Positions 28,813 through 35,303 of a DNA stretch of 64,000 bases are shown in pieces. Source of the DNA: Anaerolineae bacterium. Lineage in GTDB: Bacteria > Chloroflexota > Anaerolineae > B4-G1 > SLSP01. A program made the translations under genes and the position numbers. Location of the stretch: assembly GCA_034676805.1 (NCBI GenBank), contig JAXDDO010000010.1, positions 18,480-82,479 of the forward strand, given 5' to 3'. The first letter of the stretch is position 1. Each line of letters starts with the position of its first letter. The notes under the pieces are model-generated. The model did no database searches and had not been told where the DNA came from. It worked only from the letters and a program-made list of their open reading frames with translations.

Positions 28813-30639
28813 TCAGGCCAAGACCTCTGCCATCCCCGTCTCCAGCAGATGGCGGAAGTGCGAGTCAGGATCCTCAGCCAATCGAACTCGGTCGCCCATC
28901 TCGCGAATGCGCCCGTCTTCGAGGATGAGAATCTCGTCGGCCCGGTGGACGGTGTTCAACCGGTGCGCGATGACGATGCCGGTCCGGTTGGCCAGGAGCC
29001 GATCGACGGCCTGCTCGATCAGTTGCTCCGTCGCCGGATCGAGACGTGACGAGGCCTCATCGAGGATGACCAAGTCCGGATCTGTCAGGAATGCGCGGGC
29101 AAAGGCCAACAACTGGGCCTGGCCTGCTGATAAGCCGCCTCCTCCAGCGCCGAGCTCGGTGTCCAGGGCCTGCGGGAGGCTCTCCAGCCAAGGCCCTAGA
29201 CCCAAGCCATCGAGCACAGCACAGATCCTGGCATCGGGGATCCCCGGTTGAAAGAGCGTGAGGTTGTCGCGAACCGTGGCCTGGAAGAGCTGGACCTCCT
29301 GGGTTACCAGCGCCACCCGCCTGCGGACCTCTCCGATAGTGATGTCGGTCACGGCAACGTCTCCGAGGCAGACTTGGCCCGCCGTGGGGTCATAGAGCCG
29401 CAAGAGCAGACGGGCCAGCGTTGTCTTGCCGCTGCCCGTGCGGCCCAGAAGCCCCAGAACTCGCCCTGGCGCCAGGGTAAAGTCGAGATCCCGCAGGACC
29501 CGATCGTCCTGACCTCCGGCGGATGTGAGGGTCTCTATCGCGGACTGCCCGTTGCTGGACCCGTTTCCTCCGCTGGCCTGTGGCATGGCATCAGCGTAGG
29601 TGAACGATACGCCCTTGAACGCGACTGCGAGGGCGCCGGCCGGCAGCGGCCCTTCACTTCCGTCGACCAGACTGGAATGGGTGTCGAAGAGCTCCTGGAT
29701 GCGCGCGATTCCGGCATCGGCCTGCTGGAGCTCCGTGAGCTGCCAGCGCAGCTCGGCGATCTGCCCGAACAACAGCCCCATGTAGTCGCTGATGAGGTAG
29801 GCTGAACCGAGGGTGGTCTCGCCGCGGAGCCATAGATACCCGGCGACACCGTAAGCAACGACCTCGCCAACCGCCACCAGAGCGGCGTTGGTCATCCAGC
29901 CAGAATAGGCCGCGACGCTCGCGTTGCGGTCTATGGGCAACCAGCGGCGCAGGAACTCGAAAAGGCGGTGCATCACGTAGGGCTGAGCACCGTTGGCCCG
30001 GATGTCCTCAGTGCCCGTGAACTGCTCGCCGAGAAAGCCGTAGAACTGGGCACGGACCTCGCGCAACCTGGCATAGTAGGGAATCGCGATGTGACGCAAG
30101 CGCATCAGCACGAGCAGCCCGACGATCGCGTACACCGTGAAGCTCGCGCCTACCAGCCATCCCTCCCGGAATATCATGACGAGCACGCCGGTTGCCAGTA
30201 CGCCGTTCCCGATGACGCTCAGGACGAACTGCGAGAAAAAGCTCGACAGAGCATCGACATCGCTGTCGATGCGTTCGGTGAGCTCTCCAGGGGTGTGGGC
30301 TTTGTGAAAGGTCATGTCCAACCCCAGAAGATGCCGCAGCAGGTCCAGCCGCAGGGCGTTAGTGGCGGTCCAGGCTACGGTCTCACCCACGTAGACGTTG
30401 GCGACTGTCAGGACCTGCGTGGCGGCAGCGATTGCCAAGAACGCGCTGCCCTGACGCAGCAGACTCCCTACCTGGGCACCGGCGAAGGCTTGATCCAGGA
30501 ACGAACGCATGATCTGCGGGTTGACCAGGCGCAGCGCGATCTTGGCGATCAGCAGTGCGGACAGGATGATGATTCGGCGCCACTGGGGGCGAAGGTAAGT
30601 GCGCAACAGGGTCCAATAGCGCTTGATGGGTACCTTCAT
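28813..30639 (-). CDS. ABC exporter, fused permease/ATPase (first half of a heterodimer)
   Basis: Walker A GRTGSGKTT, signature LSAGQAQL (degenerate, as is common in heterodimeric exporters) and Walker B LVILDE. Start set at ATG 30639 (MKVPIKRYWTLL) because the track's GTG 30687 lies inside the upstream terminator hairpin. Confidence 0.9.
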   Translation of the reverse strand: MKVPIKRYWTLLRTYLRPQWRRIIILSALLIAKIALRLVNPQIMRSFLDQAFAGAQVGSLLRQGSAFLAIAAATQVLTVANVYVGETVAWTATNALRLDLLRHLLGLDMTFHKAHTPGELTERIDSDVDALSSFFSQFVLSVIGNGVLATGVLVMIFREGWLVGASFTVYAIVGLLVLMRLRHIAIPYYARLREVRAQFYGFLGEQFTGTEDIRANGAQPYVMHRLFEFLRRWLPIDRNASVAAYSGWMTNAALVAVGEVVAYGVAGYLWLRGETTLGSAYLISDYMGLLFGQIAELRWQLTELQQADAGIARIQELFDTHSSLVDGSEGPLPAGALAVAFKGVSFTYADAMPQASGGNGSSNGQSAIETLTSAGGQDDRVLRDLDFTLAPGRVLGLLGRTGSGKTTLARLLLRLYDPTAGQVCLGDVAVTDITIGEVRRRVALVTQEVQLFQATVRDNLTLFQPGIPDARICAVLDGLGLGPWLESLPQALDTELGAGGGGLSAGQAQLLAFARAFLTDPDLVILDEASSRLDPATEQLIEQAVDRLLANRTGIVIAHRLNTVHRADEILILEDGRIREMGDRVRLAEDPDSHFRHLLETGMAEVLA

Positions 30640-30667
30640 GGTCTGATCCTTATGCTTCCATGCACGC

Positions 30668-30701
30668 AAAAAGGCCACGGACGTCACAGACGTCCGTGGC
30701 C
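30668..30701 (-). terminator. Intrinsic terminator inside the leader (attenuator)
   Basis: On the minus strand: GGCCACGGACGTC-tgt-GACGTCCGTGGCC (30701-30673) followed by TTTTTG (30672-30667). The stem is a perfect 13 bp. Confidence 0.75.
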
Positions 30702-30881
30702 CGATGGGTTGCTTAGGCGATAGCGGTGATGCTCAATCGACGCACTGTAACGGGAATAGCGGTACGTTCCCCCAGCATCTACCGGAGATCAGCCCAGGGT
30801 GGCCTGGTGTTCGAAGCGGGCGGGTACCCGAACAGGCACCCGCCGGAGACCTGTCCGGTGGGACAGACTTCCCGATAGAGG

Positions 30882-30911
30882 CTAGTGAACGATGTAGAGA
30901 TCCCGGCTCAT
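30882..30911 (-). CDS. Possible leader peptide uORF (MSRDLYIVH)
   Basis: ATG 30911 to TAG 30882. An AGGAGA lies 11 nt upstream. That SD and the start sit in or next to the helix GAGACGATC/GATCTCT. This is purely a sequence-based suggestion. Confidence 0.25.
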   Translation of the reverse strand: MSRDLYIVH

Positions 30912-30941
30912 TGCGTCGATCGTCTCCTGAGGATGTTTTAG

Positions 30942-30969
30942 ATTATAGCGCCAACCTACGGAATGTCAA
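30942..30969 (-). promoter_or_regulatory. Sigma-70 consensus promoter (TTGACA-16-TATAAT) for the leader/ABC operon
   Basis: Minus strand reads TTGACA (30969-30964), a 16-nt spacer, then TATAAT (30947-30942). Both hexamers match consensus exactly. Confidence 0.7.
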
Positions 30970-31001: not shown

Positions 31002-31030
31002 TTGACATTTATTGTTCATCGTGCTATAAT
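31002..31030 (+). promoter_or_regulatory. Sigma-70 consensus promoter with extended -10 (TTGACA-17-TGcTATAAT) for heliorhodopsin
   Basis: TTGACA at 31002-31007, a 17-nt spacer ending in TGC, then TATAAT at 31025-31030. It lies 31 nt upstream of ATG 31062, which has an AAAGGAAA RBS. Confidence 0.75.
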
Positions 31031-32193: not shown

Positions 32194-33267
32194 ATGGTTC
32201 TAATGGAGATGAAAGAGCTCGCTGTGTTCTCAACAACATCAAGCCGCTGGGAGGCAATCGTTCGACGGGACACCGAGGCGGCCAAGGCCTTTGTCTACGG
32301 CGTAGTGACGACGGGAATTTACTGCCGGCCCGGGTGCCCCTCGCGGCTGCCGAACCGGGAGAACGTGCGGTTCTTTGATACGTGGGAGATGGCCGAGGCT
32401 GCCGGGTTCCGCCCGTGCAAGCGCTGCACGCCGCAATCGCCCGACGAGCCGGATGCGGCGACGCGGGCGGTGGTCGAGGCGTGTCGGATCATCGAGACGT
32501 CGGAGCAGGCGCCTACGCTGCAGGCGCTGGCCGATGCGGTAGGGTTCAGTCCCTATCACTTCCAGCGGCTGTTCAAGCGTATCGTGGGCGTCTCGCCCAA
32601 GCAGTATGCCGTGGAGACACGGCTCGACCGGGTACGGAATGGCCTGCACGAAGAGGCCTCTGTGACGGACGCGATCTACGGTGCCGGCTTCGAGTCCAGC
32701 AGCCGTTTCTACGAATCGGCCACGGCCTCGCTGGGGATGAAGCCGTCGGAATTCCGACAGGGAGGTGTGGGCATGGCGATCCGCTACGCGGTGACGCGGT
32801 GCTATCTGGGTTGGGTGTTGGTGGCGGCCACGGACAAGGGGATCTGCAGGATCGATCTGGACGCGACGCCGGAGGCGTTGGAGGCCCGCCTGAGGGCCGA
32901 CTTCCCCCAAGCGGACCTACAGGCCGACGGCACGGGCTTCGACCAGGTCCTCGCGGAGGTTGTCGCGCTCCTGGAAGCGCCCGAGCGCGGCCTTTCACTG
33001 CCGCTGGACATCCAGGGGACGGCGTTTCAACGACGCGTCTGGACCGCGCTGCAGGAGATTCCCGCAGGATCCACCGCGAGCTACAGCGAGATCGCCGCGC
33101 GGATTGGCGCGCCCAAGGCGGCGCGGGCTGTGGCGCGGGCGTGTGCTTCGAACAGGCTAGCCGTTGCCATCCCGTGTCATCGTGCGGTCCGCAGCGACGG
33201 CGGCTTGGGTGGATACCGGTGGGGGCTCGACCGCAAGGAGGCGATCCTGGAGCGGGAGTCGGCGTAG
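32194..33267 (+). CDS. ada: Bifunctional Ada: methylphosphotriester-DNA methyltransferase/AraC-type activator fused to O6-methylguanine-DNA methyltransferase
   Basis: Ada Zn-finger YCRPGCPSR...FRPCKRC, AraC HTH (GFSPYHFQRLFKR..G.SP..Y) and the C-terminal active site IPCHRAV. GGAGG RBS is present. Confidence 0.9.
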   Translation: MVLMEMKELAVFSTTSSRWEAIVRRDTEAAKAFVYGVVTTGIYCRPGCPSRLPNRENVRFFDTWEMAEAAGFRPCKRCTPQSPDEPDAATRAVVEACRIIETSEQAPTLQALADAVGFSPYHFQRLFKRIVGVSPKQYAVETRLDRVRNGLHEEASVTDAIYGAGFESSSRFYESATASLGMKPSEFRQGGVGMAIRYAVTRCYLGWVLVAATDKGICRIDLDATPEALEARLRADFPQADLQADGTGFDQVLAEVVALLEAPERGLSLPLDIQGTAFQRRVWTALQEIPAGSTASYSEIAARIGAPKAARAVARACASNRLAVAIPCHRAVRSDGGLGGYRWGLDRKEAILERESA

Positions 33268-33353: not shown

Positions 33354-35303
33354 TCACACCGAGGGCGCTGACCAGTGTAATAGGGCCTCCAGCGAGATGG
33401 CGCTCTCCCAGGGGCGGCAGCGGGTGCCCGCGGGGCGCCCATTGATGTAGTACTCGGCCCAGGCGCCAACCGGGTCGGCGAGCGTCAGCGTGGTCTCGTA
33501 GAACGCGGCGGCGAATGGATGGCGCAGCTCTGTCAGGGCGTAGAGAAGCAGGCCGTAGTCATAGCCGACGGCGGAGTCGGTCCTGCCCACCTTTGTCCCA
33601 TCCGCGTCCTGGTCTTGCCGTGAGGGCAGTTGCCCCGTTTTCTGGTAGCGAGCGACGAGCGCGTTGATCTGGGGTCGCAGATCCTCCGGCGGAAGCAGCC
33701 CGGTGTGGAAATAGAGCGGCGTCAGGCTCACCGACTGCAGCGCGTAGACCGTAGGTGGCGCGGCGGGAAAGGAACCAAGCGCCAGGCACGTGGGGCAGAC
33801 ATAGCGCCCTGTCTCGGTGTGCTCAGTCCACTCGATGCCGCGGAAGCGGCCCTCGGCGATGCAGCGCTCGCAGACGCCGTGGCGGAATCGCGGCAGCGCA
33901 GCGGACGCGGCCCGCTGAGGGTTGTTGGTGATCAATTGCCCGTCGCGCCAGAAGTTGCGGCGATAGCTGTCCTGGACGTGGTGCAGGGTTCGGTACGCGT
34001 CGGCCAGTCGCTCGTCGGGCCAGCGGCGGTGCTGCGCGATCCAGTCCAGCAACCGAGCGCCGCCATCGCAGAAGAGCAACGTCGCCTCCGCCGAGCCGTC
34101 GTTGAGCGTCGTGCGGGGCAGGATGCCACCGGCGACATAGGTCTCGTCGCCGTTGAAGGGCAGCATATCGTCGACCAGGTGCGGCACTTGCGCGTCCCAG
34201 GCCCACTCCAGCATCGGGAACACCGTGTCGAGGATCTCCTCGTCACCCCCGACCGCTGCCAAGTCGAAAGCTTGCCGGATCAGATAGCCCGTGATCTCGA
34301 CGGCGTCGTTCTCGTGGACGTGGAATGCGCCGTCCACCCCGAAGGCCTGGGCATTGTGGATGCGCCCGTGGCGCTGCCAGACGCCCCAGTAGAATTGGAG
34401 GATCTCGCGGGCCTGCGCAATCTGGCCCAGCGCCAGCAGACCGCGCGAGGTACCATACTGGTCGCGCACATACCCCATATGATAGGGATAGCCCGCCAGC
34501 ACACCGCCCTCGCGTGCCTGCTGCGCGCGGATGAGGACGGCGACGTCATCGCAGGTGCGCAGCAGGCGCGCTCGTTGGGGCAGGCCCTCTGGGAGGATGT
34601 CTTCCCAGTCCCTGCGGCTGCAAGCGAAGGCCTGCCACCAGGCTTGCGTGCGGGCGAGCAGGGCATCGGGAGGCGTATGGAGCGCGATCTCTGCGCCGGT
34701 AATGGCTTCCGGGTAGGCAGGTCCGCCCACCAGGAAGAGCCAGCTTTCGCCAGGTTCGCAGATCAGGTCGATCGTGTGCCCGGCTTGATCCACGACGGCC
34801 CGTGTCGGCCCGCGCCAGGCGATCTGATGGAAGATCGGGCCGGGAAACGGATAGGTGTGGTAGAACGGGAGCCCCGCGGGCGCCTGGAGCAGCAGGCCTC
34901 CGTCCGCCCCTGTCAATCGGGCACCGTTGTCGACAACCTGTGCGGGGACCGTAAGCGTCAGGCGGAAGCGCAGGGGGTCGGTTAGGCGCAGATGGCGTAC
35001 CAGGCAGGGCAGGTCCGCGTCGACGAAGTCGGTGATCTCGCCGGCCGGCGTTCCCGCTATGCGCAGCTGGTGAGTCCAGATCGCCGTGCCCGGCGTCCGG
35101 TGGCCGGACGCTGTGATGCGTTCAGGCATGGCGAGGGTAAGCTGGTAGAGCGAGGGCGCGCTGTAGGGAGGGCCAAAGACCTGGGCGAGGTTGGGGCCCT
35201 GGGCGTAGGCACACAATTGCCCGTTGCCCAGTGCGTGGATCGTGCCGTCATCGGTGTCTTCGCTGCTCCAGAGGCGCGCGGTGGCGTGTGGGTCTGTCTG
35301 CAT
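33354..35303 (-). CDS. Large conserved protein, possibly a six-hairpin (GH15-like) glycosidase fold, with a CxxC...CxxC insert
   Basis: 649-aa ORF of ordinary composition, last in the MFS operon. Has glucoamylase-like blocks (GYPYHMGYVRDQYGTSRGLLALG, FYWGVWQ). Function is uncertain. Confidence 0.55.
   Translation of the reverse strand: MQTDPHATARLWSSEDTDDGTIHALGNGQLCAYAQGPNLAQVFGPPYSAPSLYQLTLAMPERITASGHRTPGTAIWTHQLRIAGTPAGEITDFVDADLPCLVRHLRLTDPLRFRLTLTVPAQVVDNGARLTGADGGLLLQAPAGLPFYHTYPFPGPIFHQIAWRGPTRAVVDQAGHTIDLICEPGESWLFLVGGPAYPEAITGAEIALHTPPDALLARTQAWWQAFACSRRDWEDILPEGLPQRARLLRTCDDVAVLIRAQQAREGGVLAGYPYHMGYVRDQYGTSRGLLALGQIAQAREILQFYWGVWQRHGRIHNAQAFGVDGAFHVHENDAVEITGYLIRQAFDLAAVGGDEEILDTVFPMLEWAWDAQVPHLVDDMLPFNGDETYVAGGILPRTTLNDGSAEATLLFCDGGARLLDWIAQHRRWPDERLADAYRTLHHVQDSYRRNFWRDGQLITNNPQRAASAALPRFRHGVCERCIAEGRFRGIEWTEHTETGRYVCPTCLALGSFPAAPPTVYALQSVSLTPLYFHTGLLPPEDLRPQINALVARYQKTGQLPSRQDQDADGTKVGRTDSAVGYDYGLLLYALTELRHPFAAAFYETTLTLADPVGAWAEYYINGRPAGTRCRPWESAISLEALLHWSAPSV

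Follow-up and report, generated by a model that had tools for sequence, protein, structure and literature searches.

Classical attenuators such as those of trp, his and pheST have four segments that can pair as 1:2, 2:3 or 3:4, and a ribosome at the end of the leader covers segment 2 while a stalled one leaves it free. We describe here a leader in a 64,000-nt stretch of DNA (hereafter the window) from an Anaerolineae bacterium (GenBank assembly GCA_034676805.1, contig JAXDDO010000010.1, positions 18,480 to 82,479 of the forward strand), which lies ahead of the genes for a heterodimeric ABC exporter and contains a 9-codon upstream open reading frame (uORF), a conserved sequence box and an intrinsic terminator. 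Comparison with its relatives makes it likely that a ribosome on the uORF decides between termination and read-through into the exporter operon. In contrast to the classical attenuators, the uORF has no run of regulatory codons, stops short of segment 2, and precedes an exporter. To our knowledge, little is known of gene regulation in the Chloroflexota, an abundant and poorly cultured phylum, and almost no cis-regulatory RNAs have been described in it.

Several leaders outside this phylum are organized in a similar manner. In the Bacillus subtilis bmrBCD operon, transcription passes the bmrB leader only if the leader is translated, and protein-synthesis inhibitors set off this read-through (Reilman et al. 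2014, PMC4191407); the terminator is reported to lie within the coding region of the small ORF. The bmrB leader shares with the window a leader ORF, alternative stem-loops, and an intrinsic terminator ahead of a heterodimeric multidrug ABC exporter. The window differs in that its uORF has 9 codons, ends approximately 180 nt before the terminator and would act through a long-range helix, and it belongs to a different phylum; the two are compared by layout and not by sequence. The leaders of the ABC-F genes vmlR (PMC9226507), msrD (PMC10314930) and lmrC (PMC8546547) likewise have very short uORFs and the logic of anti-antiterminator, antiterminator and terminator, and ABC-F targets are shared with them in that two ABC-F genes in the genome containing the window carry the same scaffold. 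For the Anaerolineae box, its peptide motif and its matched tandem terminators, however, no counterpart was found in Rfam or in the literature. A multi-drug-sensing uORF in Escherichia coli is a further leader that senses translation inhibitors (PMC12121999).

The exporter leader and its orthologues

The whole leader lies on the minus strand, and its 301 nt fold with a minimum free energy (MFE) of −135.6 kcal/mol, compared to −107.4 ± 5.3 kcal/mol for dinucleotide shuffles (z = −5.3; 0 of 100 shuffles are equally stable). A first-pass annotation had described it as a uORF-dependent transcription attenuator of the bmrB-bmrCD type, and in more than 60 related leaders this description finds support in what is conserved, in what covaries and in the genes that lie alongside. 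The consensus promoter and the 9-codon uORF that it named are both present where it placed them (Table 1). The terminator hairpin with its U5 tract is also present, but has 14 pairs (ten of them G-C) and not 13, and the T5 (30671-30667) following the stem-loop (30702-30672) ends 27 nt and not 28 nt ahead of the ABC ATG at 30639. In the MFE structure the terminator folds separately and a 13-bp helix (30924-30912 with 30744-30734) closes the entire middle domain. Three of the competing helices that had been listed for this domain (CTGTCC..GGACAG, GGCGGG..CCCGCC and CCAGG..CCTGG) form in the MFE structure, but they sit in a lineage-specific insert that is not conserved. The antiterminator suggested at that time, GGCCAC paired with GTGGCC, was rejected because its GGCCAC lies inside the same insert, which cannot be aligned among orthologues; the actual pairing is between the box and the terminator (30750-30739 with 30694-30684).

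Thirteen orthologous leaders were assembled from metagenome-assembled genomes (MAGs) of the same genus and the same family, all of the genomes near the window being MAGs. When the whole leader was searched as DNA against 60 related genomes the terminator hairpin alone was matched, with about 90% identity, and the matched hairpins all lie 30-60 nt ahead of an ABC orthologue with 64-72% amino-acid identity. An exact 21-mer pattern searched in the GTDB species genomes was found in 12 contigs, every one of them from an Anaerolineae or Anaerolineales MAG. The 13 leaders have in common a promoter (TTGACA-N17-TATACT/TATAAT, in the matching position), a GGAGG, an ORF of 7-9 codons, the box (genus consensus GUUGUCGCAGUGCGUCU) and the terminator core GGACGTCTGTGACGTCC (GGACGUC-UGU-GACGUCC), the last of which is identical in all 13 despite the 64-72% identity of the ABC proteins that follow. 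The segment between the uORF and the box is unalignable, with length differences of more than 100 nt.

In the genus leaders the GGAGG is followed by an ATG after 11-12 nt, and all 13 have this ATG and a frame of 7-9 codons conforming to the pattern M-x-x-D-x-x-x-x-H (peptides include MVSDNHSRH, MVTDSNSRH, MLNDSTSRH, MGKDANFVL, MDCDANIVH and MLSDGFSRA). The stop varies between TAA, TAG and TGA, and in two leaders it has shifted to codon 8, with the old TAA now GAA. The uORF is also homologous to the N-terminus of 20-35-codon leader ORFs in more distant relatives, for example MHSDKFIAM... The conserved start, frame and length, the variable and relocated stops, and the homology to longer ORFs led by a Shine-Dalgarno (SD) sequence suggest that the uORF is translated. 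In beginning M-V-[S/T]-D, genus uORFs bring to mind the 9-codon leaders of cat86 and cmlA, in which stalling occurs at Asp; we regard this as a lead and not as evidence.

The box pairs with the terminator arm

The box is complementary to the upper 5′ arm and loop of the terminator, and the resulting antiterminator is mutually exclusive with the terminator, which is kept in all relatives. In the genus UCGCAG-U-GCGUCU pairs with GGACGU-CUGUGA, and in the window UUACAG-U-GCGUC pairs with GACGU-CUGUGA (11 pairs, −13.1 kcal/mol, z = −2.3). The substitutions that distinguish the window box (GUCGCAG to GUUACAG) convert a C:G pair to U·G and a G·U pair to A:U, retaining all six arm pairs. Across the family, the duplex of the box with the arm plus loop has p ≤ 0.05 relative to shuffled arms in 31 of 35 members, with a median z of −2.9. 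Pairing of the box with the 3′ arm, or mimicry of the 5′ arm by the box, had also been considered, and both were dropped after duplex folding gave the helix with the 5′ arm and loop.

Covariation was counted for this stated structure on a MAFFT alignment of the family that was not fitted to any structure. The antiterminator positions are paired in 81% of cells, compared to 35-51% in slid controls, and there are 18 double-change cells where 6.6 are expected, a number matched by none of 500 shuffles. Synonymous changes in the Arg codon of those relatives in which the box is translated (see below) are mirrored in the terminator loop: CGC-AG occurs with CUGCG, CGU-AG with CUACG, CCGCAG with CUGCGG, and CGCAUUG with CAAUGCG. 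RNAalifold on truncated leaders recovered the antiterminator as four pairs only because indels in the arms break the MAFFT columns, and the stated-structure count and duplex energies were therefore used.

The invariance of the terminator core and loop in the genus follows from this pairing of arm and loop with the box. Plain terminators are seldom identical in as many as 13 leaders, whereas sites read by proteins typically are, and a protein might instead read the palindrome GGACGTC-TGT-GACGTCC, either as the DNA operator of a repressor or as the RNA hairpin of an antiterminator protein, with the uORF being irrelevant. We consider this very improbable, as box pairing already accounts for the invariance and the arm, loop and box change together in other families; moreover, a U-tract always follows the hairpin, and the neighbouring genes differ with no regulator gene conserved beside the leaders.

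A second helix joins the box to the uORF start

The box also pairs with the region around the uORF start (region 1), forming a helix, P1, that acts as a candidate anti-antiterminator and overlaps the start, where a ribosome could disrupt it. In the genus, the box region GGGAG..GUUGUCGC..CGUC is matched by two stretches, uORF codons 3-7 (GCGACAAC..CUCCC) and the GAUG at the start codon. The register in the window is shifted, using the spacer before the ATG (the 13-bp helix of the MFE structure) together with codons 3-4, in which CGGGA (30905-30901) pairs with UCCCG (30755-30751).

P1 was tested on a composite gap-free alignment of 11 genus leaders, using fixed windows around the ATG and the box. 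Pairing occurs in 87.2% of cells, compared to 29-49% with a slid partner; 11 cells are changed on both sides (0 of 500 shuffles match this), and compensatory changes occur in 7 of 17 pairs (1 of 500 shuffles matches). Examples include GACAAC:GUUGUC in place of GACAGC:GCUGUC, and GACGCGAA:UUCGCGUC. In the wider family the duplex of region 1 and the box is individually significant in 21 of 35 members. Region 1 of these longer leaders is the start region, AUG CGC ACU GCA or GGAGCGCACUnnAUG, which is complementary to AGUGCGCC and varies along with the box, such that GCGCACUAC is found with GUAGUGCGC and GCGCACUUC with GAAGUGCGC. Covariation among relatives, by which the first-pass annotation had proposed that its reading be judged, is present in both of the alternative helices.

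Table 1. Features of the exporter leader and adjacent genes in the window
Feature	Coordinates	Strand	Basis or remark
Sigma-70-type promoter, TTGACA-N16-TATAAT	30942..30969	−	consensus score 12/12; predicted transcription start ~30935
Shine-Dalgarno-like AGGAG of uORF	30924..30928	−	read from sequence; 12 nt ahead of ATG
Region 1, 5′ strand of P1 (putative anti-antiterminator), GACGAUCGACGCA	30912..30924	−	abuts uORF ATG
uORF MSRDLYIVH + TAG, 9 codons	30882..30911	−	ATG 30911, TAG 30884-30882
Variable multi-hairpin insert, ~125 nt	30756..30881	−	hairpins in MFE structure; not conserved among orthologues
Conserved box UUACAGUGCGUCGAUUG	30734..30750	−	partner of region 1 and of terminator 5′ arm + loop
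Terminator upper 5′ arm + loop GACGUCUGUGA	30684..30694	−	3′ partner in antiterminator helix
Intrinsic terminator, 14-bp stem, loop UGU, U5	30667..30702	−	terminator scan
AAGGA, Shine-Dalgarno of first ABC gene	30647..30651	−	read from sequence; AAGGA/GAGGA kept before ATG in orthologues
ABC exporter subunit 1, 608 aa, transmembrane domain (TMD) + nucleotide-binding domain (NBD)	28813..30639	−	Pfam ABC_membrane + ABC_tran
ABC exporter subunit 2, 619 aa	26936..28795	−	Pfam ABC_membrane + ABC_tran
GNAT acetyltransferase, 302 aa	26006..26914	−	Pfam Acetyltransf_1; 22 nt past subunit 2
Second promoter, 12/12 with TG extension	31002-31030	+	towards heliorhodopsin; 32 nt from leader promoter
Heliorhodopsin gene, 259 aa	31062-31841	+	Pfam E = 1.9e-102; divergent from leader

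The leader belongs to a wider Anaerolineae family

Two covariance models were built, R1 from the box and terminator and R2 from near and distant members; the window sequence is in the seed alignments of both, and its scores are 73.1 bits (R1) and 56.5 bits (R2). With R1 the element was recovered from 40 of 401 sampled genomes of the class (36 of 216 Anaerolineae genera), and R2 identified further true members, mostly in complete Anaerolineae genomes with a few from other Chloroflexota classes. Ten matches were discarded as plain terminators (L082, L085, L086 and L088-L090, which are R2 matches outside the class, and L049, L050, L055 and L058), and L096 and L097 were rejected as members on the same grounds. 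A full-text literature search found no published leader-peptide attenuator in Chloroflexi or Anaerolinea, and this family, widespread in the Anaerolineae, is apparently undescribed.

The window shares with the family the box (..GUCGNAGUGCGYC..) followed by a terminator with a complementary arm and loop. In most relatives a canonical SD sequence, AAGGAGG, with a spacing of 6-11 nt opens an ORF of 20-35 codons (starts were assigned from the SD, with a few corrected by hand). This long-form ORF passes through the box and ends 0-7 codons later, as in MRTAMFIATALRLRDNSGDLLLPCRSAPFE and MNIIIFTPFISPVVAGTLPSRSAPIDR. The box is read in one frame by 44 of 50 leader ORFs, at a distance of 13 to 27 codons from the start, and three more ORFs end at a UAG or UAA within it. 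The coding box, CCU UGU CGN AGU GCG CCU, is homologous to the box of the window and is read as Φ-P-[C/S]-R-S-A-P.

Codon usage of the box was tallied in 41 distinct members, numbering the Arg codon as position 0. Position −3 is hydrophobic in 37 members and uses 12 different codons; −2 is Pro in 32 (mostly CCT, 30), and −1 is Cys in 21 and Ser in 10 (mostly TGT and TCT). Arg is present in 38 members (CGC in 15, CGT in 11, CGG in 10 and CGA in 2), followed at +1 by Ser in 35, encoded by AGT only, and at +2 by Ala in 37, encoded by GCG only. Pro occupies +3 in 40 members (CCT in 31, CCC in 8 and CCA in 1), and +4 is Val or Ile in 23, with several codons. Judged by this codon usage and the pairing described above, the box serves as an RNA element and at the same time encodes Φ-P-[C/S]-R-S-A-P-[V/I]. 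A macrolide-type +X+ motif (Arg-x-Arg/Lys) was rejected as a family trait, since it is present in only 11 of 38 long leaders.

The leaders of the long form resemble those encoding arrest peptides of the SecM/ApdA type, which have RAPP-like C-terminal motifs including RAGP, RAPP, RAPG, RGSP and RASP (PMC10987492, PMC10951233), in that a short uORF ends in R-S-A-P plus 0-7 codons, that is, in an Arg, two small residues and a Pro. They differ in that RSAP is not a published motif, the targets are not sec or yidC genes, and the output would be transcription termination; any stalling at RSAP would be by analogy. The window's own peptide, MSRDLYIVH, has no motif of the C-terminal form R/Q/H-A/G-P/G-P known from SecM, ApdA, ApdP and RQH.

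One could argue that the long-form ORF encodes a functional micropeptide, or the precursor of an exported or modified peptide, that merely has its own terminator, with the leader of the window being a decayed non-regulatory remnant. The conservation of Φ-P-[C/S]-R-S-A-P and the frequent location of the ORF beside ABC exporters would fit with this, but the same leader also precedes GNAT, HAD, ABC-F, SpoU, RsgA and AspRS genes, and the coding box covaries with the terminator loop. Furthermore, the genus of the window keeps the box, P1 and terminator under strong constraint even though its box is untranslated. We consider such a peptide function extremely improbable.

Where the window departs from most of the family is in its ORF, which stops at codon 10, about 130 nt short of the box, and the same is true throughout its genus. 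By these comparisons the leader of the window is a derived short form, the genus having apparently shortened the ORF while the box persists solely as an RNA element. In place of the window's insert, the long forms have a small sequence-variable hairpin within the ORF just upstream of the box. A further hairpin lies between their box and terminator.

These arrangements also bear on the possibility that the leader is a ligand-binding riboswitch, in which a structured middle domain binds a metabolite or the exported substrate and the uORF is incidental. The unusual stability of the leader (the z of −5.3 given above) and the aptamer-like appearance of a multi-branched domain closed by a long helix both speak for it. 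However, the middle domain varies in sequence, length and number of hairpins even within the genus, in most of the family it is substituted by the one small hairpin within the ORF, and no conserved block is left over once coding, P1, the antiterminator and the terminator are allowed for. Conservation also extends to the reading frame of the ORF and to its peptide motif. The first-pass annotation could not assign the leader to a riboswitch class, and consistent with this Rfam 15 has no family on the leader region at E values up to 10 (the best scores 18.6 bits against a cut-off of 50); at gathering score it reports nothing in the whole window or in 20 related loci. A riboswitch is thus highly unlikely.

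Twenty-eight of the 50 long-form leaders (for example L034, L035 and L091) have a second look-alike terminator, T2, in addition to the first, T1. The 5′ arm of T2 is complementary to the 3′ arm of T1, and both stems change together between lineages, suggesting that a freed T1 3′ arm would neutralise T2 in a relay-like manner. T2 is absent from the window and its genus.

Genes downstream of the leaders

The first gene behind the leader of the window encodes an ABC exporter subunit, and TM287/288 and 7ocy, which are heterodimeric exporters, are among its closest bacterial relatives of solved structure; the second subunit follows it, and the GNAT gene is probably part of the same operon. Across the family, with functions assigned as family-level annotations, the downstream genes include 17 fused TMD-NBD ABC exporters plus 12 of the window's own type, 11 ABC-2 ATPases, three ABC-2 permeases, ten GNAT acetyltransferases (one of the Eis-like Acetyltransf_9 type), three ABC-F proteins, two HAD hydrolases, and one each of a SpoU methyltransferase, RsgA and an aspartyl-tRNA synthetase.

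At least four more copies are present in the genome containing the window, ahead of one GNAT gene, two ABC-F genes and aspS. The GNAT copy has a canonical LPCRSAP leader with T1 and T2. The ABC-F copies, L092 (G000:C69:23671-23760, minus strand) and L093 (C2:16387-16469, minus strand), have leader ORFs that end at UAA or UAG in the box (...UCG UAA/UAG), and the ABC-F frame on C69 breaks off at 155 aa, suggestive of a frameshift, a pseudogene or a misassembly. The aspS copy, L094 (G000:C20:35467-35580, minus strand), has the leader MAMRNQQNQNNNPGVRLWKGQA, in which codons 5-12 are eight Asn or Gln codons, within a scaffold of region 1, box GUGCGCC, T1 and T2. It is of the classical amino-acid attenuator kind and looks like a charged-tRNA-sensing one, possibly tied to indirect Asn-tRNA synthesis, and of the internal evidence it argues most strongly that ribosome position is what the scaffold senses.

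Two further copies extend the range of targets. In a sister species, L025 (JALOOJ010000022.1, 6450-7474, minus strand) is a second copy of the short-form leader, extending into the ABC gene by its first five codons (MKIPI), that is fused to a SpoU-type RNA 2′-O-methyltransferase; this protein has an L30e-like substrate-binding domain and a weak match to thiostrepton/nosiheptide-resistance methyltransferases. In another Chloroflexota class, L083 is a divergent leader (...DGSSAPISC) ahead of a gene with the N-terminal domain of RsgA, a GTPase of the small ribosomal subunit (E = 5e-11).

A model for attenuation and its signal

Sequence comparison establishes the elements of the leader and shows that they are conserved and that the two alternative helices covary, and we propose the following model in which held ribosomes would be the trigger. 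The leader would function as four segments: region 1, comprising the uORF spacer, start and first codons; region 2, the box approximately 170 nt downstream; region 3, the terminator upper 5′ arm and loop; and region 4, the 3′ arm. If no ribosome is at the uORF start when the box is transcribed, P1 would form, the terminator would fold, and transcription would stop before the ABC genes. If a ribosome is held on the uORF, P1 would be blocked and, with the 3′ arm not yet transcribed, the box would pair with the 5′ arm and loop of the terminator, such that RNA polymerase continues into the operon of the heterodimeric ABC exporter (and GNAT).

Short and long forms would reach these states differently. 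In the short form a large insert splits the ORF from the box, and P1 would have become a long-range helix of 13-17 bp; a ribosome finishing nine codons would depart long before the box is made, leading to P1 and termination, while one held at the start or early codons would block P1. In the long form a normally translating ribosome would reach the box and the nearby stop and cover the box, giving termination, and the R-S-A-P motif may prolong its stay there by analogy with arrest peptides. A ribosome held earlier in the ORF would occlude region 1 and leave the box free for the antiterminator and read-through, and without any ribosome the pairing of region 1 with the box would again lead to termination.

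Energetic calculations illustrate what this model demands. Forcing the antiterminator in the window costs 11.8 kcal/mol (+11.8) without a ribosome and 1.9 kcal/mol (+1.9) with a footprint at −14 to +18, covering the start and early codons. Masking the uORF in equilibrium folding raised the antiterminator probability in five relatives, with mixed results overall.

Several points count against the model. In equilibrium folding of the window transcript with the uORF masked the antiterminator probability is 0; the antiterminator is thus not preferred at equilibrium, and a kinetic, co-transcriptional choice must therefore be assumed. The window antiterminator, at −13.1 kcal/mol, is weaker than those of its relatives, and it covers the upper 5′ arm only, leaving the lower 6-8 bp of the terminator formally free. 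The 12-nt spacing between SD and ATG of the window uORF is long, and outside the genus, taken one by one, roughly half of the distant members lack significant pairing of region 1 with the box. Many of the sequences are related, so the shuffle controls overstate independence and significance, and the resistance-like functions of the regulated genes rest on family-level annotation. Finally, the transcription start, the premature 3′ ends and induction are predictions from sequence.

As to the signal, we see about an even chance that ribosome-targeting compounds are the natural trigger. More broadly, the likeliest signal would be any compound or condition at which translation stalls. A translation-inhibitor signal is favoured because the regulated set (efflux ABC transporters, GNATs including an Eis-like one, ABC-F proteins and a SpoU-type methyltransferase) resembles the targets of known inhibitor-sensing leaders. 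The main alternative is a general stress on translation; the same RNA switch could respond to the physiological status of translation, through amino-acid supply, charged tRNA, growth-rate or stringent effects on ribosome speed, or coupling to RNA polymerase. The scaffold with the Asn/Gln-rich leader ahead of aspS in the same genome, and its occurrence ahead of RsgA in another class, point in this direction; resistance need not be the role of the HAD hydrolases or of many GNATs, and the 9-codon uORF has no assignable codon bias or drug-specific motif. On the other hand, the short uORFs and the PCRSAP-type leaders show neither an excess of any amino acid nor a run of a single one, and the dominant targets (export ABC transporters, ABC-F proteins, the Eis-like GNAT and the SpoU methyltransferase) are the set found under inhibitor-sensing leaders in Bacillota and Actinomycetota (PMC4191407, PMC9226507, PMC8546547). 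A physiological signal in place of antibiotics therefore seems unlikely to us.

The evidence could also be joined in a single scheme, which we put forward tentatively and regard as doubtful in its entirety. It would make of the family a 'translation-stress regulon in cis', modular and phylum-specific, in which one scaffold (start region, box, and one or two matched terminators) is copied before many unrelated genes of a genome. The antiterminator strand would also encode a SecM-like arrest motif, Φ-P-[C/S]-R-S-A-P, that parks the ribosome on the antiterminator, and the genus of the window would have cut the arrest ORF to a 9-codon uORF, with the long-range helix replacing the parked ribosome.

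Neighbouring genes

The leader promoter faces a second promoter that reads towards a heliorhodopsin gene (Table 1), and pairing of heliorhodopsin with the ABC exporter recurs in 5 of 12 related loci. In the OcHeR-OmrDE system the pump activity of a heterodimeric multidrug ABC exporter is regulated at the protein-protein level by a heliorhodopsin (Cho et al. 2024, PMC11109279). The window is similar in that a heliorhodopsin gene lies beside a heterodimeric ABC exporter, the pair being divergent with a common promoter region of 100 bp; the published work, however, says nothing of an RNA leader. Beyond the heliorhodopsin gene, 32194-33267 (plus strand) encodes an Ada-type fusion of an Ada Zn-binding domain, an AraC helix-turn-helix and an O6-methylguanine-DNA methyltransferase (Pfam), and 33354-35303 (minus strand) is a 649-aa ORF with no Pfam family at E ≤ 0.001.

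Significance

We have described here a leader that would place RNA-level control of the exporter on top of the published pairing of heliorhodopsin and exporter, together with a family of relatives that have three oddities. First, the antiterminator strand doubles as the coding sequence for a conserved Arg-x-x-Pro motif. Second, the tandem terminator stems covary, as if T1 passes its 3′ arm to T2. Third, the family offers a natural series, from leaders with a long ORF, through forms with a stop in the box, to the 9-codon uORF with a long-range helix that is found in the window. R1 and R2 would provide a computable marker for genes switched on when translation is disturbed in the Chloroflexota, and their targets, including ABC pumps, GNATs, ABC-F proteins and a SpoU methyltransferase, are candidate intrinsic resistance determinants.

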